From an uncultured Pseudomonadales bacterium (GTDB lineage: Bacteria; Patescibacteriota; Microgenomatia; UBA1400; PJMF01): a stretch of 62,901 nucleotides of DNA. Below the pieces are notes generated by a model. That model was given only the letters and a program-made list of their open reading frames with translations. It searched no databases and had not been told where the DNA came from. Shown here piece after piece: positions 26,800 through 61,078 of this stretch (the stretch's first letter is position 1; each line of letters starts with the position of its first letter). The stretch covers positions 1-62,901 of the forward strand of contig CAZVBO010000001.1 in the NCBI GenBank assembly GCA_964625685.1, given 5' to 3'. Position numbers and translations under genes: made by a program.

Positions 26800-26805
26800 C
26801 AATTT

Positions 26806-38814: not shown

Positions 38815-38820
38815 TATAAT
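38815..38820 (+). promoter_or_regulatory. -10 hexamer TATAAT (TGgTATAAT extended) for the 38853-43813 gene pair
   Basis: TTTGGTATAAT lies 32 nt upstream of the ATG, and the SD AAAGGAAAAAC precedes the start. Confidence 0.4.
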
Positions 38821-38852
38821 GAAAGTTAGTTGCAATACCTCAAAGGAAAAAC

Positions 38853-43813: not shown

Positions 43814-43874
43814 AAAATCAATCATTTCAAGAAAAGTTAGAGCCAAAATTCTTTGATAACACTAACTTAGTAAG

Positions 43875-45422: not shown

Positions 45423-45429
45423 TACTGCT

Positions 45430-45438
45430 ATTTTACCA
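45430..45438 (-). promoter_or_regulatory. Extended -10 (TGgTAAAAT) 7 nt upstream of the ATG of 43875..45422 (leaderless candidate)
   Basis: The minus strand reads TGGTAAAAT agcagta ATG. Confidence 0.4.
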
Positions 45439-45533
45439 AGTTTTTATACATATGGGAATGACCCGGTATGAGGTTAAGTTGTCAGGTAAAAAGACATGAG
45501 TTTGCCTCTTGAAATGCAAGCTCAAATTATTGT

Positions 45534-46421
45534 ATGACTATATCTAATATGAACGAAATCGAACAAAATGATCAGCTTAAGAATTTAGTTTCCTCCGCAC
45601 AGAGTATTTTAGTCATTTTTTCCAGTACTGCTAATTTTGATCAAGCTACCTTTGCTGTATCTCTGGCCCAAGCATTAGAAAAAATGGGAAAACGAGTTAA
45701 TTTATTGACGCCGGGGAAAATAAATACCAAGCTCCAGGATATTGCTGGTATTGATAAAACCAATTCAAAAATTGGGAACCAAAATTTAAATGTAATTTTT
45801 GATTATCAAAAGGAAAGTATTGATAAAGTCAGTTATCACATTGATGAAGAAGCTCAGAAATTTTATCTAGTAATTCAACCCCAAAAAGGGCATCCACCTT
45901 TAGATACGTCCGCAGTCAGTTTTGATTATGCCGGGATGGCTGCTGATTTGATTTTTTTAGTAGGAGTGAGTAGTTATGAAAGTCTTGATGAATTATATGC
46001 TGGGTATGAGGAGTTATATAAAGATACCACGACTGTGAGTTTCCATAACTATCAAACTAATTATGCGAACGTGAATTATGATGTATCTTCCCAAACCAGT
46101 TTTTCAGAATATGGGGTTGGTTTAATTGAAGGATTAGGAGGGGAAATTACGGCGGAGGTAGCGACCAATTTACTCGCAGGGGTAGAGGAAACGACTCAAA
46201 ACTTCAACTCTTTTTCGACCACGGCCCATACTTTTTCTACTGCTGCTAAGTTAATGCAGCTTGGGGCACGTCGGACCCGACGAAAGGGGAGCAGTAATCA
46301 ACCAACCAATTTAAAGAAAGAGGTTTCGGGAAAAGTGAATAGCAAGCCGAAAGCAGTAGAAGTGAAACCCGACCAGCCAAGGTCAAAAAATTTTCAGCCT
46401 AGTAGTTTAAATAATCGGTAA
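45534..46421 (+). CDS. DHH-family (NrnA-like) domain protein with degenerate catalytic motifs and a basic tail
   Basis: 295-aa ORF. Overall it resembles the NrnA N-terminal domain (…ATNLLAGVEETTQNF…TAAKLMQLGA), but DxD is replaced by SST..FD, DHH is replaced by FHN, and there is no DHHA1 domain. Confidence 0.4.
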   Translation: MTISNMNEIEQNDQLKNLVSSAQSILVIFSSTANFDQATFAVSLAQALEKMGKRVNLLTPGKINTKLQDIAGIDKTNSKIGNQNLNVIFDYQKESIDKVSYHIDEEAQKFYLVIQPQKGHPPLDTSAVSFDYAGMAADLIFLVGVSSYESLDELYAGYEELYKDTTTVSFHNYQTNYANVNYDVSSQTSFSEYGVGLIEGLGGEITAEVATNLLAGVEETTQNFNSFSTTAHTFSTAAKLMQLGARRTRRKGSSNQPTNLKKEVSGKVNSKPKAVEVKPDQPRSKNFQPSSLNNR

Positions 46422-46459: not shown

Positions 46460-46800
46460 ACAGGCTAATGTTATTCCGACGAAGTTAGGAACCTCTGTAT
46501 TTCCTAAAATACAAATATCAAAGTCCCTGCCTGCGCAGGCAGGCAAAATTCAAACATATTTCAAAATTCAAGTTCCAGGATCTGGCTTTTAGTAACCAGT
46601 AACTTTTACTTTCTTCTTTAAGCTTTACACTTAAAATTCTACTTTTTTGTCTTGGATCCTGAATCACGTCACTTCGTTCCTGTTCAGGATGACGGCTGGT
46701 AGTTTCTGGCTTTTAGCTTTAAACCTTTAAATCTCTATTCCTTTATTTCTTAGTTCTTTTTTTGTTTTTGTTCTTTTGTCTTTACCCTTTAAACTTTTTT
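46460..46800. repeat. Repeat-dense convergent spacer (A/T arm, GC hairpins and TTTCTGGCTTTTAGCTTTAAAC tail motifs)
   Basis: CCTGCCTGCGCAGGCAGG hairpin at 46527-46545. ATCCTGAA...TTCAGGAT hairpin at 46653-46689. The tail motifs are shared with 11700-11800, 19640-19700 and 62610-62640. Confidence 0.6.
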
Positions 46801-46845
46801 CTGCGAATGATCTAAGTTGTTTTTAATTGCTGTTAGAATAGGACT

Positions 46846-49800
46846 TTATTGTTTAACTGGTGTAATTTGTTTAACCCAAGGATCAGTAGTGCAGTAGTTG
46901 GGTACATTGTTTTCATCAAAATTACCGGTGGCATGATCTATGGCACAGCAGTAGGCTCCCACGGCCCAGAGCCATCCTTTTTGAGCTTGTAGCTCTTTTA
47001 TATTGCCTGTAGCTGGTCGTTTTATTCGATCTGTGGTTGCATCAGCATCACCTGAAATACTATCAGCTACCTCACCTACTTGTTCACAAGTGGGAGATCC
47101 CTGTGAAATACCCCGACTGTCATAATATTGCATTGGACCCAAAACCCATCTCACTGCAACCGCTTTCATTTGGTCAGCAGATGAATTGTCTGTCAAACCA
47201 TATCCTGATAATAGGTTGGCTAATCCATAAAAAGTATCATGAATGCTACAAATTTCACTATAATCAGGATCTCGATTACTGTTCCACATATCTGGATAAT
47301 TAAAAGCATTTAATACAAAAAAGCCTTTAAAGCCGCTTGATCCATCATTTGGGCAACCGTTCCAGTAAGGGTAAACATTTCCAGCTTCTAAAAAATCTCC
47401 TTGGTCAAAGAATGCATCATCTTTGGTACAGATATTTTCGTTACCACTCGCAAAACGGCAACCTTCTCCAGCAAGAAAAATATTCATCATTGCCACAGGA
47501 ACATGATGCTCACTAGCTGCTTGAACAAGTAGGCTTCTAAGTTTTTCTGAAGTAATAGGATATCCTCCTGTAAAAGAACAATTTGCCCCCAAGGCACACG
47601 CTGGATTAACATGCTCATCCTGATTCTTTTGGCTAAATTGACCGCCCTTCAGATACAGTTCGGTAGGATTGCTTTGAACATTAATTTCGCTAATCCATTC
47701 GTTAATGCGACTGCCGGCTTTTTGGAGTGATTGCTGAATATCTCGAGTGATACGACCCAGCCAAGCTCCCGGGACCCTTGGTTCATGATCTTCTTCATTA
47801 TCTGCTTTGACTTCTGCAGAGATTAAACAGCCAGTTGGATTATCTGTTCCTGATTTGGTCAGACATTCATTTGTCAGCGGAACAGCATAAGCCACATTTG
47901 TATACGTAGTTCCCCCAGAGAATTCATTCATAACGTCGCTAAGTTTAAAGTATTGCGGATGAGTATCTTTAAAAGAAGCTGCCTGATCTTGCCCGTGGAT
48001 AAGTCCAATTAAGGTATCTTCAACATCAGCTAAGTCAGTTCCATAAGGATAGACTAAGTAACTCACAACTGAAGTAACATCACTGGTCCGATTATCGGTA
48101 TTACCGGGTCGAATTCGAGTGAGAAAATCAAAGGTAGCTTCCTGGGCGATGTTTTGTCGCTCGGCTAAATTAGAGACCAAATCCCCTTGATCGTCAGCGA
48201 AAGTTCGTCCCTCAGAACTGGAAATACTGGCATCATCTTTAATGTCTTCCACGGCTTCTGTTTTGAGATCCGCTGGGTTGCTTTGGCAGGATTGACCAAA
48301 ATCATTGATCATGCTGACTAAGGCTTGAACTGCTGGTTCACCGCAATCACTCCCCGAGCATTCAATTGGTTTAAGCAAAGCGGAAGTATTTTCATTTCCG
48401 ACAGGAGAGGCTTTGCCTTCATCAATTCGTTGCTGAAGCTGAGAATTTCGTTCATCTTGTTTTTGTTGGGTTTGAAGGACGTTTCTGGTAAGTTGTAAGG
48501 CATCTTGGTAATAAAATTCACTATCTGGCTTTTTATTTGACACAAAATCAGGCAGTTTAAAGGCTACCACTCGAACTTCATGTTTGGGTGTAGCACTGGT
48601 TTTCCCCTTGAGTAAAAAGTCAAAAAAACCACTGGGACTAGTGTCTTTCATTTCAGTAGTAACAACTAGGAAAGCCAGCCGATACGCTTTATCTAAATAG
48701 AGGGGGACATTACTGATAGCTTTCTTAAGTGACGAGCTTATATTTTCATCTGGTGTTGCCCCATAGAGTCTTTCGCAGGTAATTCCTTGACTTTTCACCG
48801 CTTCGTAGAGAGATTTGGTGGTATATTGACCGGAAAATCCAGGAATGTCTTGATAAAGAGCACATTTGGTGGGATCGGTGAGTTTACTACACATCTTATC
48901 TATAACCTGAAGGATGTTAAGTTGAGCATCACATTGTTGTTGTTGAGTCAGCAAAGCATAAATAGGAGCCGATTTAATGAGTTGTTCATCAGGTTCTAGG
49001 GTATCATCGGTATTTTTGTAGCCCCAATATGTTTCGAGTGAACCAAATAAGGAGTCTTTATTTGCCCCATTTCGCCAGATGGGAGATTTAGCATTTGAAA
49101 AATCAATACTTTCTTGTAAATCATTGAGAGTCATCACTATTCCTGGTTGGACATCTCGAGCGATATAATCCGGCCCGACTGAAATAATAGCCGACCGTTT
49201 GGGAGTGGCACAACTTACTTCATAGCCCTGATCGAGCAGCTCATTTTTGATTTGTTGAGCAGAACCATCAATAATGCCAGGAATAGGGTAAATATAATAA
49301 TCGTCTGGATGAGTTTCCTCGGTAGCAGTATCCATTGAACCAGCTTCCCCGATATAAAAAGGTTTTCCCAGAGCTTGAGCTTTTTGAAGAGATTGTAAAG
49401 CGATAGCCTTTTCACTACTGGTATAGTAATGAGCAGAGGTGACAGTAATATTGCTGGCTTGATTGGAAACGGTAAAATTATCACTCCCGGTTGGGCTATC
49501 ACAAGCACTGTCTGGATTGTTAGCCATTTGACCAATGCCAATATTGCCTAAATACGTAGATCGCAAATTGCTACCACTAGAAACAGTTGAAACCCAATTG
49601 TTATAAGCACCGACTGCTCCGGTGTCACTGCCACAGTGGGGTTCATTGGCTAGTTCTAACGCATACACTGGTGCATAATTTGATTGGGTGGCAGCCGCAA
49701 TTGAATTGGCAAAAGGCAAGTATTCACTTTGATAACCGCTACTGTACCAAGTGGAGTCAGCCCCAGCTGGAATTCCGCCTTGACCATTGCTGTAATCGCC

Positions 49801-50319
49801 AATGGCAATAATGAGTTTTACTCCAGTTTGATTGGCGGCTGCTAGTGCAGTTTGTACCCCTTCAACTCCTCCAGCCCAGCCGAACATTCGAACGACGGTC
49901 ACTCCACAGTTTTGATTGAGCCAGCTAAGATGATCTACCATGACTTCGGAACTGCTTTCACCTAAGTCCCAAATATTTACGCCGACAAATTTTCCTTGAG
50001 GAGTATATTTGTCTGACATTTTTTTTAAAGTGGCACAAATTTCACGACCCTGACCATCGGGATCATTACGGAAGAAAGAGTTGGGATCAGTTTTAAAGAT
50101 TGAACCAGTTCCCGGAAAATAGCCAGAGTATTGCCAGACCAAGTACCCCGTAGCACCTCCACCTAAAAACTCGTCGATGTCAGACTCTAGTTGAGTAGCG
50201 GAAATGGGTTGATAGACTGATTGAGCGAAGAGAGGTTGAGCAGCTATTTTCAAAAAAAGACTACCTACAAAAAAGGCAGAAAGAAGAAACGTGGCAAACA
50301 ACCAAAATGCTTTTCTCAC
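46846..50319 (-). CDS. Giant secreted protein with an N-terminal GH5-like (cellulase/mannanase-fold) glycoside hydrolase domain and ~800 aa of unknown function
   Basis: The ORF runs to 50430, but the GTG at 50319 follows TATAAT+6 nt and begins a signal peptide (RKAFWLFATFLLSAFFVGSLFLKIAAQPLFAQ). GH5 signatures are LELANEPHCG (acid/base NEP) and FYIGEAG (nucleophile). Confidence 0.65.
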   Translation of the reverse strand: MRKAFWLFATFLLSAFFVGSLFLKIAAQPLFAQSVYQPISATQLESDIDEFLGGGATGYLVWQYSGYFPGTGSIFKTDPNSFFRNDPDGQGREICATLKKMSDKYTPQGKFVGVNIWDLGESSSEVMVDHLSWLNQNCGVTVVRMFGWAGGVEGVQTALAAANQTGVKLIIAIGDYSNGQGGIPAGADSTWYSSGYQSEYLPFANSIAAATQSNYAPVYALELANEPHCGSDTGAVGAYNNWVSTVSSGSNLRSTYLGNIGIGQMANNPDSACDSPTGSDNFTVSNQASNITVTSAHYYTSSEKAIALQSLQKAQALGKPFYIGEAGSMDTATEETHPDDYYIYPIPGIIDGSAQQIKNELLDQGYEVSCATPKRSAIISVGPDYIARDVQPGIVMTLNDLQESIDFSNAKSPIWRNGANKDSLFGSLETYWGYKNTDDTLEPDEQLIKSAPIYALLTQQQQCDAQLNILQVIDKMCSKLTDPTKCALYQDIPGFSGQYTTKSLYEAVKSQGITCERLYGATPDENISSSLKKAISNVPLYLDKAYRLAFLVVTTEMKDTSPSGFFDFLLKGKTSATPKHEVRVVAFKLPDFVSNKKPDSEFYYQDALQLTRNVLQTQQKQDERNSQLQQRIDEGKASPVGNENTSALLKPIECSGSDCGEPAVQALVSMINDFGQSCQSNPADLKTEAVEDIKDDASISSSEGRTFADDQGDLVSNLAERQNIAQEATFDFLTRIRPGNTDNRTSDVTSVVSYLVYPYGTDLADVEDTLIGLIHGQDQAASFKDTHPQYFKLSDVMNEFSGGTTYTNVAYAVPLTNECLTKSGTDNPTGCLISAEVKADNEEDHEPRVPGAWLGRITRDIQQSLQKAGSRINEWISEINVQSNPTELYLKGGQFSQKNQDEHVNPACALGANCSFTGGYPITSEKLRSLLVQAASEHHVPVAMMNIFLAGEGCRFASGNENICTKDDAFFDQGDFLEAGNVYPYWNGCPNDGSSGFKGFFVLNAFNYPDMWNSNRDPDYSEICSIHDTFYGLANLLSGYGLTDNSSADQMKAVAVRWVLGPMQYYDSRGISQGSPTCEQVGEVADSISGDADATTDRIKRPATGNIKELQAQKGWLWAVGAYCCAIDHATGNFDENNVPNYCTTDPWVKQITPVKQ

Positions 50320-50325
50320 ACCTGT

Positions 50326-50331
50326 ATTATA
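50326..50331 (-). promoter_or_regulatory. -10 hexamer TATAAT 6 nt upstream of the GTG at 50319 (leaderless candidate)
   Basis: The minus strand reads TATAAT acaggt GTG. Confidence 0.4.
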
Positions 50332-50362
50332 CGGGAGGGGTAAAGAAGTGAGTAGAGTAAAG

Positions 50363-50824
50363 TTACTGAGGTCCGTTTTCCGTCCATTGGGTTGAGGAAT
50401 CGGGAATGGTAAAGTTAAGGAGGGTATCAATACCGGTAAATTGAGAAATAATATTTACAATAAAGTAAGCACTTAAGGCTACTACTAAACCAATAACTGC
50501 ATACGTCATGGTCTTTCGAGCCGAGTCCATCCCCTTTGAATCCCCGCCTGAGATCATCATTCTAAAGGCAGCAAAAATCATCATCACAAAACCGATGATT
50601 CCGATGAGGGTCACGAACACCATTAAAATATTTCCAATCAAGCATTGCAAACCTTGGATGGTAGCCACGTCTGAGCCTTTATAGACACACACACTTCCTT
50701 CAGATTGCCAGTTTGCTGTTTGAGCAAAGGTAGGGGCTGGAGTGATCATGCTGATGAATACAGTCAACACGAGCATCATTAGTATTTTTTTGGTTACAGA
50801 AACAATATAAGAACGCTTTTTCAT
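50363..50824 (-). CDS. T4SS pilin-like protein, paralog 1 (TrbC/VirB2-like, CPR T4SS-pilin type)
   Basis: Start taken at the ATG at 50824 (MKKRSYIV...). It has a signal peptide ending TFAQ and the core motif ISGGDSKGMDSARKTMTYAVIGLVVALSAYF between two TM helices. Confidence 0.65.
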   Translation of the reverse strand: MKKRSYIVSVTKKILMMLVLTVFISMITPAPTFAQTANWQSEGSVCVYKGSDVATIQGLQCLIGNILMVFVTLIGIIGFVMMIFAAFRMMISGGDSKGMDSARKTMTYAVIGLVVALSAYFIVNIISQFTGIDTLLNFTIPDSSTQWTENGPQ

Positions 50825-50834
50825 AGTGGCTTCA

Positions 50835-51344
50835 TTACTCAATAGTAGTGGTATCTCCTTCAATAGTCCGGATGTTGGTAAAAACATCATTGAGCGATTC
50901 AAAACCTAAGAAGTTGACTATGAGGTTGATTACAGCAAAAGAAGCGGCAATAATCAGCAAACCAATAATGGCTGAAATGATCTTTTGTCGAGCGCTATCT
51001 GTTTTACTTTTATCGCCGCCAGAGGTGATCCAGTTTAAGGCCCCCCAGATGAGGTAAAAGAAAACCAGTAGAGCAGCAATCACCATAATAACGCTTAGTA
51101 ACCCGTTAATTAGCCCACTAAAACTCTCAGCAAAGCCTTCTGGAACTTGAATGATGTCTGTATTCGTTGAAGCAGTTGAGTCACTTGCGACCAGGGTGAC
51201 AGTATCGACATCTTTAGAGAGGTAAATAATATCGCCATCTCTCACAACATTACCTTTAGTGGTTTGAGCGGAAACAGGCAGAGTAAAGAGTAGACTAGCA
51301 GAAAGTATGGAAAGTCCAATTATTAAGTTCAGGGTTTTTTTCAT
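50835..51344 (-). CDS. T4SS pilin-like protein, paralog 2
   Basis: Signal peptide ending VSAQ. Core motif WITSGGDKSKTDSARQKIISAIIGLLIIAASF. Confidence 0.7.
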   Translation of the reverse strand: MKKTLNLIIGLSILSASLLFTLPVSAQTTKGNVVRDGDIIYLSKDVDTVTLVASDSTASTNTDIIQVPEGFAESFSGLINGLLSVIMVIAALLVFFYLIWGALNWITSGGDKSKTDSARQKIISAIIGLLIIAASFAVINLIVNFLGFESLNDVFTNIRTIEGDTTTIE

Positions 51345-51384
51345 AATGTATAGCTTCTTTATTGCTACGTACTTTAGATTATAA

Positions 51385-51418
51385 CAAAAAAGCTCTCTGG
51401 ATTGGAGAGAGCTTTTTT
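51385..51418. terminator. Rho-independent (bidirectional) terminator after pilin paralog 3
   Basis: AAAAAAGCTCTCTggattggAGAGAGCTTTTTT, an 8-bp perfect stem. Confidence 0.75.
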
Positions 51419-51433
51419 CATAAATATTTTAAC

Positions 51434-51784
51434 TTATTTGAGTTTTGTCTCAGTGTTATTGATATCTCGGACATTTTCAAAAGCTTGATTTACACCATCA
51501 AAACCTAAGAAGTTGAACAGTAGCTGCAGAATGGCATAAGAGGCAGCTAAGATGATTAAACCGATCACTGCTGAAGTAATTTTGTTACGGGCTTTTTCGG
51601 TCTGACCTTTATCACCACCAGAGGTGATCCATTCAATTCCACCCAAGATGAGGTAGAAGAAGACCAATAAAGCAGCTAAGACCATTACAAAACTTAAGAC
51701 ACCATTAATTAAACCACCAAAGGATTCAGCAAATCCTTGCCCGGGATCAATGGTTAGGGCATAAACTTGTGGAAGTAGATTCAT
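51434..51784 (-). CDS. T4SS pilin-like protein, paralog 3 (candidate major pilin)
   Basis: ATG at 51784 with the SD GGAG 6 nt upstream (the ORF-track start at 51796 is TTG). Core motif WITSGGDKGQTEKARNKITSAVIGLIILAASY. No Cys-rich extension. Confidence 0.7.
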   Translation of the reverse strand: MNLLPQVYALTIDPGQGFAESFGGLINGVLSFVMVLAALLVFFYLILGGIEWITSGGDKGQTEKARNKITSAVIGLIILAASYAILQLLFNFLGFDGVNQAFENVRDINNTETKLK

Positions 51785-51817
51785 ATTTTTCTCCAATTTT
51801 GCTTCTTACTACCAGGT

Positions 51818-51847
51818 ATTATACAAACGAGTGTAGCTAGAAGTCAA
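51818..51847 (-). promoter_or_regulatory. Near-consensus sigma-70 promoter of pilin paralog 3
   Basis: The minus strand reads TTGACT (51847-51842), an 18-nt spacer, then TATAAT (51823-51818). Confidence 0.6.
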
Positions 51848-51865
51848 CTTTTTAATTATTATTTG

Positions 51866-52375
51866 TTAATTATTTAAAACACAGCAATATCTTGATCCTG
51901 AACAATTCATTTGACCAATACTTCGGTGGGTTGCCGGACAGGTTGTCATACAAGCTCCATTATTGGCTGCACAGGAGGTAGCTGGATCAAGTTGTCTCAC
52001 TGTTCGTTCGCTTGAATTCGTAGATCCACCGGGAATGGAAATAACTTCAATACCCAGTAATGACTGCACGACCATAAAGATAGCAAAAGTAGCGGCTAAG
52101 ACAATGATTCCAATGATGGACTGAATAATTTTGTCACGGGCTTTGCCTAATTTGCCGCTATCACCTCCGGCGGTAATCCATTCAATTCCTCCCCAAATAA
52201 GGTAGAGAAGAACGAGTAAAGCAGCAATAACCATAACGGCACTGACGATGCCACTAATAAAGGTGCCAAATCCAGTTTCGGGATTGGTTGCATCAACCGC
52301 TCCAGTACCGGCTAAACCTTGGTCAGCAGCTTCTTGGTACAGATCTATGGTAGTTTGAGCTAAAAGGCTGAGCAT
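51866..52375 (-). CDS. T4SS pilin-like protein, paralog 4, with a C-terminal 6-Cys module
   Basis: Core motif WITAGGDSGKLGKARDKIIQSIIGIIVLAATF. C-terminus SCAANNGACMTTCPATHRSIGQMNCSGSRYCCVLNN. Confidence 0.7.
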   Translation of the reverse strand: MLSLLAQTTIDLYQEAADQGLAGTGAVDATNPETGFGTFISGIVSAVMVIAALLVLLYLIWGGIEWITAGGDSGKLGKARDKIIQSIIGIIVLAATFAIFMVVQSLLGIEVISIPGGSTNSSERTVRQLDPATSCAANNGACMTTCPATHRSIGQMNCSGSRYCCVLNN

Positions 52376-52381
52376 AATTAT

Positions 52382-52906
52382 TTAAAAGCTCGGCAGTGAG
52401 ATTCTGAGTAGATCAAACTCACCACCAAAGAATACTTGCCCGATATAGGAAATAATGACGAAAGAACCCACAAGTACCACTAAACCGATAATTGATTGCG
52501 TGATTTTGTCCCTAGCTTTCCCGACTTTACTACTATCGCCTCCGGCTGTAATCCACTCAATTGCCCCCCAGAGGAACATGATAATGACAGCAAGTCCTCC
52601 AATATTGATAATGGCTTGCCAAATAACGATAAGATATCGTTGAAAGGTGCTGCCTTCCTCAGCCGCAATAGGGTCATCTCCCAAGTTTCCAATAACTGGA
52701 TTGGTTAAGCCACCCTCAGTATTACGGGTGCCACCTGCTGGTTCATTCATACATCCAGTAATACACTGCTGTCTCTGAACTGTATCGGTAATAAAACGGC
52801 ATTGATCATTACACGCTGATTGTGAGTTTTGAGCTTGAACTGGTTGAAGCCCACTAAATAAATAAAAGAAAGAAATGAGAAATGCGAATGTAAAAAGTTT
52901 TTTCAT
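52382..52906 (-). CDS. T4SS pilin-like protein, paralog 5, with an N-terminal twin-CX3C module
   Basis: Signal peptide ending VQAQ, then CNDQC-x11-CITGC. Core motif WITAGGDSSKVGKARDKITQSIIGLVVLVGSF. Confidence 0.7.
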   Translation of the reverse strand: MKKLFTFAFLISFFYLFSGLQPVQAQNSQSACNDQCRFITDTVQRQQCITGCMNEPAGGTRNTEGGLTNPVIGNLGDDPIAAEEGSTFQRYLIVIWQAIINIGGLAVIIMFLWGAIEWITAGGDSSKVGKARDKITQSIIGLVVLVGSFVIISYIGQVFFGGEFDLLRISLPSF

Positions 52907-52912
52907 AAAAAT

Positions 52913-53272
52913 TTAAGGTATTAATGCTCTCAGTGCAGCTGCAGGCATAAGTAAATTAAACCCAATAATATTTCCGACAATTCCAATAATGCTATAGGCA
53001 GCCACTACAACGACCAATCCAATGACCCCTTGAATCATTTGATTGCGGGCTTTACCAACTTTACCACTATCTCCACCAGCCGTAATCCAAGTCAAGCCTC
53101 CAATTAAGAAATAAACAATAAAGAAAATTCCGCCCAAAATAGTTAAAAAACCAATGATATTAGAAATAAAAGATTCAAGATTGGTTAGAGCCATATCTCC
53201 CGCTTCTGATCCGGCACTGTAAGCTTCAGATGGTGGAGAAAAAGTTCCAAGTGATTCTGCAAGTAATGGCAT
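52913..53272 (-). CDS. T4SS pilin-like protein, paralog 6
   Basis: Core motif WITAGGDSGKVGKARNQMIQGVIGLVVVVAAY. Confidence 0.7.
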   Translation of the reverse strand: MPLLAESLGTFSPPSEAYSAGSEAGDMALTNLESFISNIIGFLTILGGIFFIVYFLIGGLTWITAGGDSGKVGKARNQMIQGVIGLVVVVAAYSIIGIVGNIIGFNLLMPAAALRALIP

Positions 53273-53304
53273 AACAATATTATTTATCGACTAGTTTATA
53301 TTAA

Positions 53305-53952
53305 TTATGGCGTCGTAGTGCTAGTTGGTCCTGAAATATTGGGACTAAGGATATATCCAGCATCTCCAAAGAATAAAAGGCCAACTAGAGCGGTAATAGT
53401 ATAAGCAGCCACAATAATGATTAAGCCAATCACACTCATGGTAATTTTATCTTTCACTTTGCCATAAGCAGAGCTATCCCCACTAGAAGTAATAAAAATA
53501 TAACCCGCCAAAATAATATTAATCATAACCCAGAGGCCGGCTACAATTGTCGCGAGTTTAATTAAATTAGAAATAAAAGGAATGAGTCCAATTCCATTAG
53601 TTCCCTGAGCATTAAATAGAGTAACTCCAGGAGGTGTTTCTATTTGTCCAAAAATGGTGCCATTTAATCTGCCGTCTCGGCAATCATTGACACAGTTCTG
53701 TCTGTCTTGGCCAGTATAAAGAGAACAGGCATCATTACACACATCTACTGATGTTGTACTTATATTGTCATCTAAACAGGTCTGATAACAACTGTCTCGT
53801 TGGGCGGTAGTAAAATAGGGAACAGAGTAACAAGTATCATGGCATTCATCTGCAACACTTTGGGCTTGAATTTGAGATGGAGTAAGTAGCCAGCTACTCA
53901 GTATGGTGACTAAACTAAAAACGGAAAGTAAGATTTTAGTAAAACGGTTCAT
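53305..53952 (-). CDS. T4SS pilin-like protein, paralog 7, with two N-terminal twin-CX3C modules
   Basis: Signal peptide ending IQAQ, then CHDTC-x13-CYQTC and CNDAC-x10-CVNDC. Core motif ITSSGDSSAYGKVKDKITMSVIGLIIIVAAY. Confidence 0.65.
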   Translation of the reverse strand: MNRFTKILLSVFSLVTILSSWLLTPSQIQAQSVADECHDTCYSVPYFTTAQRDSCYQTCLDDNISTTSVDVCNDACSLYTGQDRQNCVNDCRDGRLNGTIFGQIETPPGVTLFNAQGTNGIGLIPFISNLIKLATIVAGLWVMINIILAGYIFITSSGDSSAYGKVKDKITMSVIGLIIIVAAYTITALVGLLFFGDAGYILSPNISGPTSTTTP

Positions 53953-53978
53953 ATGACTTGACCACTATTGTATCATTT

Positions 53979-54329
53979 TTAAAAGCCGAGTGACATGCCG
54001 GTTAAAATTTGTAAAATTTGGATTACCCAATACGCAGCAAACATAATAATGAAACCAATGATAGCTGTAGTCAGAATTGACGTTGCCTCGTCCTTGCCTT
54101 TTGTTCCTTGGGAAATAAATTTGAAACCAGCAAACATAATCATAAAAAACAAAATGATTCCGGCAAAAACAAACAAGTTACGAACTAAGGTATTCACTAA
54201 AATGGAAGGAGTGCTATAAACCTCACCCAAACTTTGGCCATTGCCTAGATCAATACAATCACCCAAATTGACATTGGGTCGGGTTGGGTCACACTGTGCA
54301 TAAGCTTGTGGAATAAAGTTTAAACTCAT
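53979..54329 (-). CDS. T4SS pilin-like protein, paralog 8 (divergent)
   Basis: Start taken at the ATG at 54329 (MSLNFIPQAYAQ...); the longer ORF to 54440 would overlap the sigma gene. Core motif ISQGTKGKDEATSILTTAIIGFIIMFAAY. Confidence 0.55.
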   Translation of the reverse strand: MSLNFIPQAYAQCDPTRPNVNLGDCIDLGNGQSLGEVYSTPSILVNTLVRNLFVFAGIILFFMIMFAGFKFISQGTKGKDEATSILTTAIIGFIIMFAAYWVIQILQILTGMSLGF

Positions 54330-54406
54330 ACGCCTGATATTATAGTCGAAAAAGTGATTTTGAGGAAAGAGCAAAAAAAATGATGAGTTGTGTTGCAGAA
54401 TTAGGG

Positions 54407-54412
54407 TATACT
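54407..54412 (+). promoter_or_regulatory. -10 hexamer TATACT 10 nt upstream of the ATG of the ECF sigma gene
   Basis: The plus strand reads TATACT tagagttagt ATG, with no SD. Confidence 0.3.
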
Positions 54413-54422
54413 TAGAGTTAGT

Positions 54423-54950
54423 ATGATTGATGATCAGCAATTATTACTTCAACTCAAACAAGGTGACCCTCATGCGGTTGAATTGTGGTTTAAGCTGTAC
54501 CATAAAAAATTGCTAAAGCTTATTTTGATGAAGGTATCAATTAAAAAAGATGCCGAAGAGATTGCTCAAGACACTTTTATGAGCTGTTTAAAACATTTAC
54601 CATTATTTCGAGGAGAATCGGCTATTTGGACCTGGATGGTGAAGATCTCACAACATGAAGTAGCTGACTATTATCGAAAGCGATATGCCAAGAAAGCAAT
54701 TCACGCTTTATCTTTAGATGAGTTTTTACTCAGTACCAAGATTGATAATGCCCATGATACTTCTGAAAAAGTCAAACTGGCTTTGTCTAAAATGAGTCAA
54801 GAGTATCGTGAAATTTTATTGATGAAATATGTAGACAATAAAAAAGTTAAAGAAATTGCGGCTATTTTAGGTAGAACTATTAAGGCTGTGGAGTCTGATT
54901 TGTTTCGAGCTCGGGTGGAATTCAAGGAAATATATTTAGCTTTGGAGTAA
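54423..54950 (+). CDS. ECF-type (sigma-70 family, group 4) RNA polymerase sigma factor
   Basis: 175-aa ORF with region 2 (…AEEIAQDTFMSCLKHL…) and region 4 (EYREILLMKYVDNKKVKEIAAILGRTIKAVESDLFRAR). Confidence 0.75.
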   Translation: MIDDQQLLLQLKQGDPHAVELWFKLYHKKLLKLILMKVSIKKDAEEIAQDTFMSCLKHLPLFRGESAIWTWMVKISQHEVADYYRKRYAKKAIHALSLDEFLLSTKIDNAHDTSEKVKLALSKMSQEYREILLMKYVDNKKVKEIAAILGRTIKAVESDLFRARVEFKEIYLALE

Positions 54951-54953
54951 TGA

Positions 54954-55130
54954 ATGTCAAATCAATTTTTTTTAGAGCAACTTCAATCTCAAGCTCAAAA
55001 GCAAGCTGTTTTGCATGAAAAACGGATTCTTCCCCGACAATTGGATAATATAACTTCTTTTATTGGCAATTATCCTTGGCAGGTGATTGGAGTACTATCA
55101 TTTATCACAGCACTCACAATCAGCTTTTAA
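54954..55130 (+). CDS. 58-aa single-pass membrane protein, candidate minimal anti-sigma factor (below the ORF-track cutoff)
   Basis: Hand translation gives MSNQFFLEQLQSQAQKQAVLHEKRILPRQLDNITSFIGNYPWQVIGVLSFITALTISF. The ATG lies 4 nt after the sigma stop, and there is a C-terminal TM helix. Confidence 0.4.
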   Translation: MSNQFFLEQLQSQAQKQAVLHEKRILPRQLDNITSFIGNYPWQVIGVLSFITALTISF

Positions 55131-55154
55131 GTCAAGATCGAAGGTATTGGGACT

Positions 55155-55487
55155 GTGACTAAGACACCTATTTTGTCGATCATCTATTCTACAGGCCAAA
55201 TAACTTTAGGTTTACTGCTTCACCCTTATCAAACGATGCAGATGTTGGTGGAAGATAAAGTGTTCGTCTGGATGTCATTATTACCCACCTTAGTTTTAGC
55301 TATCGTTACTGTTCTCTGGAAGTTTGTGATTGTACCGGTGGTCCGATTAGTATTTTCCTGTTCAACTACTCAGTTTGCGGGATGCCATTATTTAGTTTTT
55401 GGTTCCAATTGGATTACCTTTTTTTGTATTTACTGGCAGATACTATTGTTGTATTTATTATTTCGATTTAAAAAGGTGTGGGGGTAG
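55155..55487 (+). CDS. Hypothetical 3-TM membrane protein (GTG start)
   Basis: 110-aa ORF between the sigma module and idi. It is hydrophobic and has no known motif. Confidence 0.45.
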   Translation: MTKTPILSIIYSTGQITLGLLLHPYQTMQMLVEDKVFVWMSLLPTLVLAIVTVLWKFVIVPVVRLVFSCSTTQFAGCHYLVFGSNWITFFCIYWQILLLYLLFRFKKVWG

Positions 55488-55490: not shown

Positions 55491-56144
55491 GTGAAATATT
55501 CTTTTGGTTCGAAAAAAGTAGTATTAGTTGATGAAGACGATCAGCTGATTGGTGAAATGCCGGTTTTAGAGGCTCATCAATCACCTTTTTTTCGACACCG
55601 GGCAATTTCAGTTTGGCTAGTTCGGCAAAATGAACAAGGTAATCTGGAAATCTTACACCAACAACGAAGTCCTCAAAAGTTGGGTGGAGGATGGTGGGCG
55701 AATGGAGTCTGTGGTAACGTTAAGCCAGGAGAAACGTATACTGAGTGTGCTGAAAGACGACTCAGAGAAGAACTAAATGTAAAGGAAGTGAGTTTGCAAC
55801 CACTTTATAAATTTGAGTATCAAACGTACTGTAATGAAATTTACAGCGAACATGAAATGGATCAAGTTTTTATAACGGAATATAGGGAAGACATAGTGCC
55901 CAACCAACAAGAAGTTTCTCAAGTAAAATGGATTTCTCTAACTGAATTTCATAAGTTTTACCAACAATATCAAACCGAAATAATGTCGGCCACAGAGACA
56001 TTGAATTATTCCATGATGGAGTTAATGGGTTGTACTCCCTCACTTCCTTTGGAATATAAAAGTTCTGTTCTCTGGATAGCGCCTTGGACTTTGGTCATGT
56101 TAAAAGAGAGTCAACTGTGGCAAGCTTTTGAGCAGTTTGCATGA
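55491..56144 (+). CDS. idi: Isopentenyl-diphosphate delta-isomerase, type 1 (Nudix fold), paralog A with a C-terminal extension
   Basis: 217-aa ORF (GTG start) with RHRAISVWL…HQQRSPQK…WWANGVCGNVKPGETYTECAERRLREELN. Confidence 0.75.
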   Translation: MKYSFGSKKVVLVDEDDQLIGEMPVLEAHQSPFFRHRAISVWLVRQNEQGNLEILHQQRSPQKLGGGWWANGVCGNVKPGETYTECAERRLREELNVKEVSLQPLYKFEYQTYCNEIYSEHEMDQVFITEYREDIVPNQQEVSQVKWISLTEFHKFYQQYQTEIMSATETLNYSMMELMGCTPSLPLEYKSSVLWIAPWTLVMLKESQLWQAFEQFA

Positions 56145-56176
56145 AACTTGATTGTGGTCACGACTAATACTATGTT

Positions 56177-57346
56177 ATGACCAGATCTTCTTTTCGATTT
56201 GCAACCGAACCAACTGAAATAGCTCGCATTAAAAAACGCCAAGAATTATTGAGTTCACTGAGAAGTTCTTCCACAAGCCATCTGTCTGCTTTTCATTTTG
56301 ATGGTGAAAAAGCAGGAACGAAAAATTGTGAGAATTTGATAGGCAGTGTAGAAGTTCCAGTAGGTGTTGCCGGTCCAGTCTCTCTTCAATCAACGCTTTT
56401 TGAATCAAATGAGGTTATCCTGATTCCCCTGGCTACCTCAGAAGGGGCTTTGGTAGCGAGTGTGAATCGTGGCTGTAAAGTACTTGATCTTGCTGGTGGG
56501 GCCACTACCTTTTCCCGTCGAATTGGGATGACTAGAGCTCCTGTTTTTCAGTTAGCTGATGGGTCTTTAGCCACGAAGTTTATGGAGTGGTTGGATCAAC
56601 AATTTGAAAAGATCAAAAAAGTGACAGAAAGTACGAGTCATCATCTGAGTCTAGAGTCTTATCAAAGTTGGCAGAGGGGTCGAAAGGTATACACTCGGTT
56701 TGTTTTTCATACTGATGAGGCCATGGGGATGAATATGGTGACCATAGCTTTAGATACAGTCTGGCGAAAACTCATTTCTCAATTTCAGGGTGTTGAACTT
56801 ATTTCGTTATCCAGTAATGTGTGTGCCGACAAAAAAGATTCAGTGATCAATCGCTTGTTAGGAAGAGGCTATTGGTCTCAAGCTGAAGTTTTTTTGTCAG
56901 AAAAAATTATTAATCAGCAATTATCAGTTGAAAGTGAGCGGTTGGTGGCAGTTCATCAGGCCAAAAATTTAGTTGGCTCTAATTTAGCGGGTTCATTTTC
57001 TCAGAATATGCAACATGCCAATGTTATTGCTGCTTTGTTTTTGGCGACTGGTCAGGATATGGCTCATGTGATTGAAGGAAGTCAGGGCAGTACTACGATT
57101 GAAAAAACTGCTGATGGAGTTTACTGTGCAGTCACTTTACCCAATCTTAATTTGGGAACAGTGGGTGGTGGTACTTGGCTAGAAAGTCAGTCAGAGGCCA
57201 GGGATATTATTAGAGAAAATGGAAAAATTACAGCCCAACAACTTAGTGAAGTTATGGCGGTAGCCTGTTTGGCTGGAGAAATTTCCGGATTGGCGGCACT
57301 GTCAAATAATACTCTGGCTTCAGCTCATGGGAGATTGGCGCGATGA
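56177..57346 (+). CDS. hmgA: HMG-CoA reductase, class I (soluble archaeal-type)
   Basis: 389-aa ORF with ENLIGSVEVPVGVAGP, TDEAMGMNMV (class-I DAMGMN motif) and GTVGGGT. Confidence 0.85.
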   Translation: MTRSSFRFATEPTEIARIKKRQELLSSLRSSSTSHLSAFHFDGEKAGTKNCENLIGSVEVPVGVAGPVSLQSTLFESNEVILIPLATSEGALVASVNRGCKVLDLAGGATTFSRRIGMTRAPVFQLADGSLATKFMEWLDQQFEKIKKVTESTSHHLSLESYQSWQRGRKVYTRFVFHTDEAMGMNMVTIALDTVWRKLISQFQGVELISLSSNVCADKKDSVINRLLGRGYWSQAEVFLSEKIINQQLSVESERLVAVHQAKNLVGSNLAGSFSQNMQHANVIAALFLATGQDMAHVIEGSQGSTTIEKTADGVYCAVTLPNLNLGTVGGGTWLESQSEARDIIRENGKITAQQLSEVMAVACLAGEISGLAALSNNTLASAHGRLAR

Positions 57347-58425
57347 AATTTAAGACTCCCAGTGGTATTGTGGCTTTTGGTTCAGCCATTCCGTCTTTGG
57401 CGATTCAAGTTACTGAAATTGAACAAGCTCAAGGCCAGCCCAAGGCTGGTCCGCCTCGGGCGGAAAAAGTTGGAGGTCAAGTAGGTCCAGCTTTAGGGGT
57501 AGCACAGAAGACTGTGCCTGACATTGATCAAGATGCGGTGACTTTATCAACTGATGCATTAGCCCAAGCTTTAGAAAGACTGCCCCAAAAGAAGGAAAGT
57601 ATTGGGGCTTTATTTATTGGCAGCGAAAGCCACCCTTACGCGGTTAAACCGAGTGGTACGATGGTGGCTCAAGCCTTAGGTTTATCGCCTCACCTAGCAC
57701 TGGCTGATCTACAATTTGCCTGTAAAGCGGGAACTCAGGCGATTCAAATCGGATTGGCCTATGTGCAATCGGGGATGGCCAAATTGGCAGTAGGCATTGG
57801 CGCGGATACCGCCCAATCTCGACCAGGTGATGCCTTGGAATTTACGGCTGGGGCTGGTGGAGCTGCTTTTGTAATTGGTCAAGACAAAATTTTAGCGACA
57901 GTTTTAGCCACGACGTCGTATGCCACAGACACTCCCGATTTTTGGAGAAGGCCCGGTGAGGCTTATCCTCAACACGCAGGAAGATTTACGGGGGAGCCAG
58001 CCTATTTTGAACATATTATTCATGCCACACAAAATCTTTTAACTGAAGTAAAGTTAGAACCCACTGAAATTGATTACTGTGTGTTTCATACGCCCAATGG
58101 TAAGTTCCCCAAAGCGGTAGCTCACCAATTGGGTTTTACTCCTGATCAGCTTCAGCACTCTCTAGTTGTGGAACAGATTGGAAATACGTATTCGGCTGGT
58201 TCGTTGATGGCTTTAGTGAATGTTTTGGAAACCGTGGAAGCTCATCAAAAAATCTTAGTTACTTCTTATGGCTCTGGATCAGGAGCAGATAGCTTTTTGT
58301 TGGAAACCACTGATCTATTAGTTCAATCTCGAAAAACCTGGTCTAGCTTTTTGAAAGATCAAATAGCCCAGTTGCAATTAGTCACATATCAGCATTATTT
58401 ACAAAATACCAGCGGAGGTCACTAA
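57343..58425 (+). CDS. HMG-CoA synthase, archaeal-type
   Basis: 360-aa ORF with GSESHPYAVKPSG, the catalytic-Cys context LQFACKAGT and HTPNGKFP. It overlaps the hmgA stop by 4 nt. Confidence 0.8.
   Translation: MKFKTPSGIVAFGSAIPSLAIQVTEIEQAQGQPKAGPPRAEKVGGQVGPALGVAQKTVPDIDQDAVTLSTDALAQALERLPQKKESIGALFIGSESHPYAVKPSGTMVAQALGLSPHLALADLQFACKAGTQAIQIGLAYVQSGMAKLAVGIGADTAQSRPGDALEFTAGAGGAAFVIGQDKILATVLATTSYATDTPDFWRRPGEAYPQHAGRFTGEPAYFEHIIHATQNLLTEVKLEPTEIDYCVFHTPNGKFPKAVAHQLGFTPDQLQHSLVVEQIGNTYSAGSLMALVNVLETVEAHQKILVTSYGSGSGADSFLLETTDLLVQSRKTWSSFLKDQIAQLQLVTYQHYLQNTSGGH
57436..57465 (+). repeat. 30-nt GC-rich double mini-hairpin inserted in-frame in the HMG-CoA synthase gene (encodes QPKAGPPRAE)
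   Basis: CAGCCCAAGGCTGGTCCGCCTCGGGCGGAA contains the hairpins CCAGCC-caa-GGCTGG and CCGCC-tc-GGGCGG. It is related to 9305-9354 and 5820-5848 and contrasts strongly in GC with its flanks. Confidence 0.6.
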
Positions 58426-59543
58426 TGCAGATTTCCATTCTTGGCTCCGCGATTACTCAATTCGGAGAACTGTGGGACAGAAGTTTGGCAGATTTACTGA
58501 CAGAGGCAAGTTTAGGGGCTGTGAAAGATGCCCGAATAGAACCATCAAAGATCGAAGCTATTTTTGTAGCTAATAAAGCTGGGAGTAATTTTGAAAATCA
58601 AATGCATTTGGGAGCGATGGTGAGTCAACTCTTTGACCATTTTCCACCAGCAGTCCGAATTGAAGGGGCGTGTGCCTCGGGTGGATTGGCAGTATTAGCA
58701 GCTGAGCAAGCTTTACTGAGTGGAATGTACAAAACTGTACTAGTGGTGGGGGCGGAAAAGATGACTGATGTGAGTGCCGCTGAAACCACCCAAATTTTGT
58801 CAGCGGCGGCTAATGTGAGTCAGGAAGTGGGAAGCACTTTTCCCGGACTATATGCTTTGTTTGCTCAACGACAAATATATGAATTTGGTTTGTCTCGAGA
58901 TCAACTGTCAGCTGTAGCTGTTAAAAACCATCGTCATGCTATGGCCAACCCTTATGCTCAGTACCATAAAGAATTTACCTTAGCTCAGGTGAACCAAAGT
59001 TCTCTGGTAGCAGATCCTTTACGTTTGCTAGATTGTTCTCCTATTACTGATGGGGCAGCCGCAGTAGTTTTGACTTCCAAAATGGTTAAAGGCAAACCTA
59101 AAGTTCTTGGTTTTGGTCAAGGACAAGATAGTTTGGATGTAGCTCATCGCCAAAGTCTAGTGGGACTACCAGCGACTGAGCGAGCGATGAAGTTAGCTTT
59201 AGCTCGCTCACAAGTTTCAATCGATCAAATTGAAGCGGCGGAAGTCCATGATTGCTTTACCATTGCCGAAATTATGGCTATCGAAGATTTGGGATTTTTT
59301 GAAAAAGGAAAAGGTGGTCGGGCTACACTGGATCAACAAACAACTCATGATGGAAAAGTCGTAATTAATCCGTCAGGTGGTTTGAAAGCTTGTGGGCATC
59401 CTGTTGGTGCTACTGGTGTGAAGCAAATTGCCTATTTGGCTCAAGCTTTAGAAAAAAATGAATACCAAACGGTTTTAGCCCATAACATCGGGGGTAGTGG
59501 AGCGACGGCAGTGATACATATTTTAGCAAAGAAGGAAAAGTAA
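58425..59543 (+). CDS. Acetyl-CoA acetyltransferase (archaeal/SCP-x-type thiolase)
   Basis: 372-aa ORF with the active-site context RIEGACASGG and the C-terminal motifs EVHDCFTI and NPSGGLKACGHPVGATG. Confidence 0.8.
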   Translation: MQISILGSAITQFGELWDRSLADLLTEASLGAVKDARIEPSKIEAIFVANKAGSNFENQMHLGAMVSQLFDHFPPAVRIEGACASGGLAVLAAEQALLSGMYKTVLVVGAEKMTDVSAAETTQILSAAANVSQEVGSTFPGLYALFAQRQIYEFGLSRDQLSAVAVKNHRHAMANPYAQYHKEFTLAQVNQSSLVADPLRLLDCSPITDGAAAVVLTSKMVKGKPKVLGFGQGQDSLDVAHRQSLVGLPATERAMKLALARSQVSIDQIEAAEVHDCFTIAEIMAIEDLGFFEKGKGGRATLDQQTTHDGKVVINPSGGLKACGHPVGATGVKQIAYLAQALEKNEYQTVLAHNIGGSGATAVIHILAKKEK

Positions 59544-60493: not shown

Positions 60494-61078
60494 ATGTCTC
60501 TAGAACACTACTTAAGACAACCATATACTGAAATTGACGGTGTTTTTTGTTATTTTTGGTATTTAGGGCACCTCATTTTATTGTCTACTCCAGAAACCGA
60601 TTTAATTCCGCAAGGCAAGTCTGAAGGAGATCTCTATCGTGATTCTAATCTGCGAATTTTAACAACTGATCAGTTTAGTGTCATTAGTGGGGGAGTTGAG
60701 GCTGTTTCAGAAGAAGTAATAATTGAATTACCTTCTACACTAGAAGAAAGAAAAACACAGGCCATTTTAAGAGAAGTGCTAGAAGAATCTGGACTTGTGC
60801 TCGACTCTCAAAAGTTAAATATTCTTCCTGATAGCACTACTAAAACCATTCAAAGCCGAAATGGAAAAGGTATTTATCTTATTCGGGGGACTGGTTTTTC
60901 TTATGAATTGAATCAAACCGAATTTCGCCAATTACTAACATACTTGAGAGAAAGAAATAGAAATGCAATTATTGGGACTGTGGCGGAAATTTTTTCTCAA
61001 GAAGCAGCATTAGAGTTGAGGCCGTTTGCTCATAGTGCCTTGCAGCTGCTTGAGCCAGTAGAAAGCGAAATAGAATGA
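60494..61078 (+). CDS. Hypothetical protein with a partial Nudix box, embedded in the mevalonate operon
   Basis: 194-aa ORF. E-x7-REVLEESGL matches the Ex7REUxEExGU core, but the upstream Gly of the Nudix box is absent. Confidence 0.45.
   Translation: MSLEHYLRQPYTEIDGVFCYFWYLGHLILLSTPETDLIPQGKSEGDLYRDSNLRILTTDQFSVISGGVEAVSEEVIIELPSTLEERKTQAILREVLEESGLVLDSQKLNILPDSTTKTIQSRNGKGIYLIRGTGFSYELNQTEFRQLLTYLRERNRNAIIGTVAEIFSQEAALELRPFAHSALQLLEPVESEIE

Follow-up and report, generated by a model that had tools for sequence, protein, structure and literature searches.

A tandem array of eight VirB2-like pilin genes near a type IV secretion system in a Pacebacteria-like Patescibacterium, with one candidate major and seven candidate minor subunits

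Tandem series of genes encoding small, VirB2-like pilins are known from Patescibacteria, where the closest described systems are found. In a recent survey (Quinonero-Coronel et al. 2025; PMC12102498), 3,035 Patescibacteria genomes were searched with the Pfam families PF18895 and PF04956, and 441 arrays of 2-11 VirB2-like pilin genes were reported from 383 assemblies, most commonly from Microgenomatia and Saccharimonadia. According to the same survey, identity within an array averages 25% with a maximum of 54%, and the arrays are located near a monoderm-type virB4 gene, often near dnaA and usually without a relaxase gene. For Southlakia epibionticum, a second report (Wang et al. 2023; PMC10633639) describes its type IV secretion system (T4SS) and a series of predicted pilins as essential, i.e. 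they are required for the epibiotic life of the sole Patescibacterium that has been tested genetically. A review from 2025 (PMC12857230) refers to six structurally conserved, sequence-divergent VirB2-like pilins and to a possible pilus, so that the essential array of S. epibionticum comprises six pilins. Here we analyzed a stretch of 62,901 nucleotides (nt) of metagenomic DNA, designated the window throughout, which carries eight pilin-like genes in succession at positions 50363-54329 on the minus strand.

The locus belongs to the published kind. It shares with the arrays of Patescibacteria, including the SEML1_0006-0019 region of S. epibionticum, the tandem arrangement of PF18895/PF04956-type pilin genes and the low identity within the array; moreover, a virB4 gene of the monoderm type (MPF-FATA-like) lies within 20 coding sequences, dnaA is close by, and neither a relaxase nor a coupling protein is encoded nearby. 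The survey counts as an array at least two highly divergent pilin genes that are either in tandem or separated by one non-pilin gene; the window has eight in tandem, in a Pacebacteria-like genome, and there is no categorical difference. The original prediction, made from the letters of the DNA, had taken eight such genes in a row as unusual, which does not hold. We compared the window with 64 species-representative genomes, which were found with a profile of one of the pilins (p3, see below) and whose loci encode 472 pilins. Seven to nine same-strand tandem pilins are the norm in this set and were counted in nearly every locus with full flanks, arrays of 2-11 genes are reported in PMC12102498, and because this kind of locus is already published there and in PMC10633639, a claim of novelty fails. 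The window adds no new kind of system; what the comparative analysis gives is a testable structure. What appears to be new is the fixed and conserved place of each copy, and one plain copy whose signals are those of a main subunit with high expression. The accessible text on the published arrays makes no mention of position-specific orthology, a separate p3-type transcription unit, p5-p4 fusions or Cys-rich tails. We propose that the eight genes, named p8 to p1 in the order of their transcription, are the VirB2-like pilin array of a chromosomal, oriC-proximal T4SS and that their products probably build one heteromeric pilus-like structure, of which p3 would form the bulk and the other seven the minor subunits.

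Listing and translation of open reading frames (ORFs) confirmed eight consecutive, intact minus-strand genes, whose products of 116-215 amino acids (aa) share one core. Lengths are given for the most plausible start codons:

p8: 53979-54329, minus strand, 116 aa; first gene of the array and its most divergent pilin

p7: 53305-53952, minus strand, 215 aa; Sec signal peptide, N-terminal extracellular extension, pilin core

p6: 52913-53272, minus strand, 119 aa; short leader, no Cys

p5: 52382-52906, minus strand, 174 aa; Sec signal peptide, N-terminal twin-Cx3C module (4 Cys), pilin core

p4: 51866-52375, minus strand, 169 aa; short leader (MLSLLA/QTT), pilin core, C-terminal extracellular 6-Cys domain

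p3: 51434-51784, minus strand, 116 aa; plain pilin without Cys and with minimal tails, candidate major subunit

p2: 50835-51344, minus strand, 169 aa; Sec signal peptide, Cys-free N-terminal extension, pilin core

p1: 50363-50824, minus strand, 153 aa from the ATG at 50824; last pilin of the array, Sec signal peptide, 2 Cys in the N-terminal tail

The TTG starts of p1, p3 and p8, which would yield 179, 120 and 153 aa, respectively, were dropped in favor of ATG starts because of the signal peptides, a Shine-Dalgarno site, the orthologues and, for p3 and p8, the public gene calls. For p1, a public gene call of 175 aa was set aside, and its start was chosen by the signal peptide and by orthologue a1 of a related genome (L007, with pilins a1 to a8). 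Six further metagenome assemblies contain the same eight genes, all intact, with 99.95-100% identity at the DNA level. The sequencing runs SRR13617037-45 and SRR29076162 carry the organism or a relative as well.

All eight products comprise a pair of hydrophobic helices with a short basic loop in between. The motif W-I-T-(S/A)-G-G-D-x-x-K-x-x-K-A-R-x-K, originally ascribed to the whole array, is clear in p2 to p6 and degenerate in p1 (MISGGDSKGMDSARK), p7 (FITSSGDSSAYGKVKDK) and p8 (FISQGTKGKDEA). Outside the core the paralogues are unrelated in sequence and length, as had been stated: global alignments to p1 give 24-30% identity and local BLAST alignments between paralogues 18-60%, the core of p2 being nearest to that of p3 (60%). 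Leaders ending in A-Q, attributed to most of the proteins, occur in six of the eight (FAQ, SAQ, LAQ, QAQ, QAQ and YAQ), while p3 has YAL and p6 has LAE at this site. A Sec-type signal peptide is present in p1, p2, p5 and p7 only; merely 5-11 residues precede the leader motif in p3, p4, p6 and p8. The leader of p8 reads MSLNFIPQAYA/Q, and two Cys residues follow in its N-terminal tail. The short leader of p4 is kept in the p4-type orthologues. The p3 orthologue (b6) of a more distant genome (L009, GCA_018816485.1, with b-numbered pilins) retains a full signal peptide, and therefore the leader was shortened in the lineage of the window.

Assignment to the family Pfam T4SS_pilin (PF18895; gathering cutoff 26.6 bits), which had been named at the outset, was borne out by the profile search. 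Seven of the eight proteins pass the cutoff with 30.8-41.9 bits (p1 34.3, p2 30.8, p3 38.5, p4 37.9, p5 35.5, p6 41.9 and p7 33.8). With these scores and the intact array in the six other assemblies, the pattern is not due to chance. The eighth, p8, scores 22.4 bits and stays under the cutoff; it is a divergent member of the family, because a profile of its orthologues matches the 110-sequence family alignment in hhalign with a probability of 98.1% (E 9.9e-14). The TrbC/VirB2-like layout suggested at the outset stood in part. All 110 homologues match PF18895, and 32 of them also match the TrbC/VirB2 family PF04956 (E <= 0.01, best 2.8e-8) and seven match CagC, but the window proteins themselves remain under the PF04956 cutoff. 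These weak but recurring cross-matches among homologues therefore indicate a tie to the classical T4SS pilins at the level of the superfamily and not membership in PF04956.

Hydropathy peaks mark two transmembrane (TM) segments in each of the eight proteins, with three to four Lys/Arg residues in the loop of seven proteins and two in p8. The tails are mostly acidic, and Cys residues are confined to them and occur in even numbers; among the 472 related pilins, even Cys counts exceed odd ones (136 vs 36). An outside location of the N- and C-termini is favored by the basic loop, by the largely acidic nature of the tails and by the even-numbered Cys residues that only the tails contain. Each product is predicted to form a membrane helical hairpin with both ends outside and the basic loop GGD-x-x-K-x-x-KAR-x-K inside. 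The AlphaFold2 model of p3 is a helical hairpin with a predicted local distance difference test (pLDDT) score of 84, in which the helices 22-54 and 59-93 exceed 90. Small hairpins with both ends outside, a basic loop and linkage to VirB4 and VirB3 are likewise found for the conjugative pilins VirB2/TrbC/TraA (PF04956) and for CagC of Helicobacter pylori (PF16943). However, classical conjugative systems have one pilin plus VirB5 and reside in diderms, whereas the window has eight paralogues, no recognizable VirB5 and a monoderm-type T4SS, and half of its pilins lack the long leader peptide that signal peptidase cuts off from the conjugative pilins, which polymerize into a lipid-containing filament.

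The T4SS genes are located in the same chromosomal oriC region, which comprises rnpA, yidC, jag, dnaN and dnaA:

23122-24651: dnaA, adjoining the VirB4-like gene

24841-26802, minus strand: VirB4-like T4SS ATPase (PF19044, PF12846 and PF03135 CagE_TrbE_VirB), adjoining dnaA

28252-29376, minus strand: PrgI/VirB3-like T4SS membrane protein (PF12666 PrgI, 31.4 bits)

30392-34783, minus strand: 1463-aa protein with a C-terminal M23 peptidase domain (PF01551, 29.3 bits)

Next to virB4 lie both dnaA and dnaN, and from virB4 to the start of the pilin array the distance is 12 genes. The M23 protein, a candidate cell-wall hydrolase of the T4SS, is syntenic with an M23 protein of L009 and of locus L010. 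With VirB4, the PrgI/VirB3-like protein and the M23 hydrolase, the linked T4SS is of the monoderm type, and no Pfam match to a relaxase or a coupling protein was obtained among the 50 largest ORFs of the window (50 of the 56 with at least 100 aa). The window comes from a Pacebacteria-like Patescibacterium; the nearest loci are from metagenome-assembled genomes (MAGs) of Pacebacteria, Paceibacterota, Microgenomates and Woesebacteria, in the lineage Minisyncoccota, i.e. Patescibacteria.

Each copy of the array has its own counterpart elsewhere. L007 possesses eight pilins in the same order, and reciprocal best matches pair them one to one with those of the window at 52-85% identity, as compared to 18-60% between paralogues. 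Both p8 and a8 and p6 and a6 are 85% identical; p1 and a1 share 97% in the core, and p7 and a7 share 88% in the core vs 29% in the N-terminal extension. The order is also kept in L009 at 40-55% identity, with two p7-like genes. At this long range p3 is the best conserved paralogue (55% to b6, vs 42% for p6 to b4). Synonymous sites have reached saturation between the window and L007 (pS ~0.78, range 0.65-1.0), and dN/dS was therefore not estimable; the rate of non-synonymous differences (dN) and a qualitative reading were used instead. The dN is 0.098 in the cores (0.03-0.17 for the individual paralogues) and 0.32 in the tails. Together with the saturated synonymous sites, these values indicate that each copy is under strong purifying selection and that the tails evolve at about three times the rate of the cores. 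The eight copies are ancient and not redundant with one another.

Pseudogenization, which the original prediction had named as an observation that would speak against it, was not found. If most copies were unexpressed remnants of duplication, low identity between paralogues and a p8 score below the Pfam cutoff might be expected, and nothing else in the data points this way; all eight genes are intact in the window, in the six other samples and in L007 despite the saturated synonymous sites, and the dN of the cores stays low. The conservation data refute this reading, to which we give practically no credence. Phase variation, which had also been offered as an explanation, was not supported either. 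The array would then be a cassette whose copies duplicate and recombine rapidly and escape being recognized by phage, host or immune system, as could be suspected from tandem, divergent copies and from the fast evolution of the exposed tails. An analogy to Bartonella and Anaplasma is drawn in PMC12102498, and the VirB2 families of Bartonella and Anaplasma phagocytophilum do share with the window the presence of several tandem VirB2-like genes in a host-associated bacterium. However, these families are read as antigenic variation, whereas the copies in the window are ancient, position-conserved and non-recombining. Between the copies, no DNA repeat exceeded 48 nt at 71% identity, no inverted-repeat switch or invertible element was detected, the orthology with L007 is strictly colinear without gain or loss, and array size is stable over the 64 genomes. 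The contigs of the six other samples are essentially identical (99.95-100%) and show no usable strain variation. We therefore consider antigenic or phase variation very unlikely.

Among the eight genes, p3 stands out by its expression signals:

51818-51847, minus strand: sigma-70-type promoter of p3, TTGACT-N18-TATAAT, near-consensus (11/12)

51386-51409, minus strand: intrinsic terminator of p3, a hairpin with T-run directly 3' of the p3 stop codon

This promoter is the best promoter-like site within the 8.7 kb from 46500 to 55200, and GGAG is placed 6 nt ahead of the p3 ATG as Shine-Dalgarno site. The terminator is followed by GTTATAAT, likely the -10 box for p2-p1. Promoter and terminator likewise flank the p3 orthologues in L007 and L009, and in the 64 loci these signals concentrate at the p3-type gene: a promoter match of at least 10/12 precedes 73% of them vs 0-18% at other array positions, a hairpin with dG <= -12 and a T-run follows the stop codon in 85% vs 0-2%, and a Shine-Dalgarno core is present in 83% vs 0-29%. 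Since the stems of the terminators differ in sequence from genome to genome, selection and not mere inheritance maintains this signal. In size, too, the p3-type protein varies least among the array members, and only 2% of the p3-type proteins contain Cys, as compared to 8% to 100% at other positions (77-88% at the two positions after p3). Because the plain, Cys-free copy alone has its own strong promoter, Shine-Dalgarno site and terminator, p3 would form the bulk; we infer that it is the abundant major subunit and that the other seven are minor subunits. A similar division, with an abundant plain subunit expressed strongly from its own unit and conserved, low-abundance subunits presumed to prime assembly or to form the tip, is known from type IV pili and the pseudopili of type II secretion systems and is here suggested for the window; the analogy is functional only, as fold and machinery are unrelated. 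The candidate major subunit is recognizable across genomes by promoter, Shine-Dalgarno site and terminator, and hence is the gene to tag for imaging. A search of the literature for T4SS pilin expression in TM7x retrieved type IV pilus work only.

An alternative is that each paralogue is a major pilin in its own right, which forms its own homopolymeric pilus and is chosen according to condition or host, for instance through an extracytoplasmic function (ECF) sigma factor and internal promoters. A candidate regulator is located at the head of the array:

54423-54950, plus strand: ECF-type sigma factor (Pfam Sigma70_r2, Sigma70_r4_2 and Sigma70_ECF), divergent from the array head

The same layout is seen in L007-L010 and in 41 of the 64 related loci. 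Moreover, the array comprises at least three transcription units, headed by a TATAAT box that ends 9 nt before the p8 ATG (54330-54350), by the p3 promoter and by the box after the p3 terminator; the tails differ strongly between paralogues, and PMC12102498 proposes adaptation to differing host strains. However, a strong promoter, Shine-Dalgarno site and terminator come together at one position only, the remaining genes follow each other in operon-like runs with gaps of 4-30 nt, and position-specific orthologues were retained across saturated synonymous divergence. Fusions of neighboring paralogues also fit co-assembly better. Fused p5-like and p4-like pilins occur in four of the 64 loci (L057; L058, 6848-7807; L063, 7021-7815; L064, 188-871) and in the proteins P0004/P0005. 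The fusion in L009 is one protein of 275 aa (4402-5229, equal to L057 4345-5226). The p5-p4 fusions are four-helix proteins, always encoded immediately upstream of the p3-type gene, and therefore hint in the manner of a Rosetta stone at neighboring paralogues acting together in one assembly. Taken together, separate homopolymeric pili appear improbable.

Of the three readings offered originally, a heteropolymeric filament fits best, as judged by the one-to-one, position-conserved orthologues, the plain and strongly signaled subunit and the fusions between neighbors. In such an assembly, the hairpins would insert into the membrane with both ends outside, as predicted, and by homology a VirB4-powered machine would extract and polymerize the subunits. 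The shaft would consist of p3, and the seven position-specific minor subunits, encoded upstream (p8-p4) and downstream (p2-p1) of it, would initiate, cap or sparsely decorate the filament. Being of low abundance, they could present fast-evolving, disulfide-stabilized N- or C-terminal modules to the surface of a host cell. Family membership, linkage to the T4SS, orthology and expression signals are shown; filament formation, stoichiometry and contact with the host would be the consequences drawn from them. The minor subunits form a conserved, ordered set and offer knock-down targets for studies of host specificity; their fast-evolving, outward tails are the likely host-contact surfaces.

Several points weigh against a heteromeric pilus. 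Four of the eight proteins (p3, p4, p6 and p8) have no signal peptide. The strength of expression was read from DNA signals alone, and the promoter consensus may not be that of this phylum; in addition, a weak match to the consensus does not prove low expression, because in many genes here the -10 box in use seems to lie near the start codon. None of the window proteins reaches the cutoff of PF04956 (27.9 bits), the best scores being 16.5 bits for p2 and 12.4 bits for p3. A Foldseek comparison of the p3 model with PDB gave no match at E <= 0.001, and the conjugation pilin of Aeropyrum pernix (8dfu) ranked only 42 and 18 (TM-score 0.62-0.64, root-mean-square deviation (rmsd) 2.8-3.2 A, E 4-6); this comparison does not discriminate, since a helical hairpin is too simple and generic a fold. 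Likewise, a profile of the eight paralogues retrieved no pilin from all PDB sequences, the top matches being unrelated TM segments. Finally, no Patescibacterium has been observed with a T4SS pilus, and reviews treat it as a possibility (PMC12857230). The last point and the inconclusive structural match to solved pilins would be accommodated if no filament were formed, i.e. if the hairpins did not polymerize and instead anchored variable extracellular modules in the membrane for display on the cell surface, or belonged to the T4SS channel as accessory parts. Some array members of relatives even carry extensions of up to ~420 aa. However, p3, which has the strongest signals and is conserved best, has hardly any extracellular module that it could display, the family shares homology with the TrbC/VirB2/CagC pilins, and the array is linked to VirB4 and VirB3. 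We regard an arrangement without filament as rather unlikely and maintain the heteromeric pilus as the probable one.

Some of the putative minor subunits carry unusual Cys-rich tails. The C-terminal 6-Cys domain of p4 covers residues ~133-169 (37 aa; DNA ~51869-51979, minus strand; L007 counterpart at 4290-4415) with the spacing C-x6-C-x3-C-x11-C-x5-CC. When searched alone against PF00711 Defensin_beta (gathering cutoff 21 bits), it scored 20.3-20.7 bits (E 4-5e-4), i.e. just under the cutoff, and the domain of the L007 orthologue scored 22.7 bits (E 1e-4), i.e. over it; both span profile positions 3-35 of 36. Shuffling of the p4 domain with the Cys positions fixed abolished the match in all cases (0/9). 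Only two PDB sequences were matched at E <= 10, oyster big defensin 1 and bovine beta-defensin 12. AlphaFold2 placed strands at residues 141-143, 150-152 and 163-167, with a pLDDT there of just 58-74, and the top Foldseek matches were crocodile beta-defensin 7t9q (probability 0.91, rmsd 1.4 A, 32 columns) and human beta-defensin 1 (hBD-1) at a non-significant E of 0.66-0.84. Among 1.84 billion representative proteins the only homologue was the L007 orthologue, making two genomes in total; four other matches were discarded as repeat proteins (Kelch-like and Cys-repeat). The C-terminal domain of p4 may thus resemble beta- or big defensins, a borderline lead for which convergence is a possible explanation. 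It shares with the animal beta- and big defensins (PF00711; trans-defensins) the Cys spacing, a near-full profile match and three short predicted beta-strands, but is fused to a bacterial membrane pilin, whereas the animal ones are secreted peptides. In trans-defensins the disulfides join C1-C5, C2-C4 and C3-C6. In bacteria only cis-defensins have been reported (PMC11561630), and if the resemblance is true, p4 would be the first bacterial protein reported with a trans-defensin-like domain.

The N-terminal tails of p5 and p7 have Cys modules of another type. The twin-Cx3C module of p5 (residues 32-52; 52751-52813, minus strand) scored 21.3 bits with PF14861, the plant alpha-hairpinin antimicrobial peptides, under the cutoff of 27. 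While p5 has one such module, the tail of p7 (residues 37-91; 53680-53844, minus strand) has two, with four Cx3C motifs (8 Cys) at 37/41, 55/59, 72/76 and 87/91. The twin-Cx3C modules are predicted to be disulfide-stapled helical hairpins. Additional twin-Cx3C modules were observed in the L007 orthologue a7. In a regular-expression census of the 472 pilins, almost none had a defensin-like or twin-Cx3C pattern, and therefore these modules are lineage-specific and not a trait of the family. It is conceivable, if doubtful, that the heteromeric pilus combines a p3-type major subunit with position-specific minor subunits bearing modules of antimicrobial-peptide type (beta-/big-defensin-like at the C-terminus of p4, alpha-hairpinin-like in p5 and p7), and that with these modules, on the surface or at the tip of the pilus, an epibiont would bind or breach the envelope of its host. 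If the defensin-like tail of p4 is real, the trans-defensin fold would extend to bacteria, with a hint as to how an ultrasmall parasite attacks the host envelope.

Further genes surround the array. A 58-aa ORF (54954-55130, plus strand) is located directly behind the ECF sigma gene, as are ORFs of 58-64 aa in relatives (L001, 1641-1817), and could encode an anti-sigma factor governing the array. On its other side, the array is followed by:

46846-50319, minus strand: large secreted protein of 1157 aa from the GTG at 50319, with a glycoside hydrolase family 5 (GH5) domain (PF00150, 28.4 bits), directly downstream of the array

In L007, L009 and 22 of the 64 loci, the array is likewise followed by a gene for a GH5 protein homologue. 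A TATAAT box is located 6 nt before the start codon of the GH5 gene (50320-50335). Placement of TATAAT ~6-10 nt before the start codon without a Shine-Dalgarno sequence was observed for the first pilin of the array (most arrays of L011-L073) and for the GH5 gene, and is conserved across dozens of related genomes. Since TATAAT is so close to the start codon and a Shine-Dalgarno sequence is missing, the first array gene and the downstream GH5 gene would seem to have mRNAs that are leaderless or nearly so.

Between the M23 hydrolase and the GH5 protein, region 34899-46421 contains six large genes (643, 492, 577, 1075, 515 and 295 aa) without Pfam match, which likely encode uncharacterized T4SS parts or substrates. 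The 515- and 295-aa genes are conserved beside the array in 24-27 of the 64 loci, a few of which also have the 1075-aa gene. A mevalonate-pathway cluster is present at 55491-59543 and 61075-61872, comprising genes for a NUDIX protein, HMG-CoA reductase, an HMG-CoA synthase-like protein, thiolase and an amino-acid-kinase-family protein. The NUDIX protein may be an isopentenyl diphosphate (IPP) isomerase as judged from its position (Pfam gives NUDIX only), and the amino-acid-kinase-family gene (61075-61872) may encode an isopentenyl phosphate kinase. The cluster and the pilin array are syntenic in L003, L005, L008 and L009. A pilin array typical of Patescibacteria is also found in many public MAG records with the titles 'uncultured Pseudomonadales bacterium', 'Vitreimonas sp.' or 'candidate division TM6' (L011, L013, L016, L018, L019, L045 and others); these records look mislabeled or misbinned.

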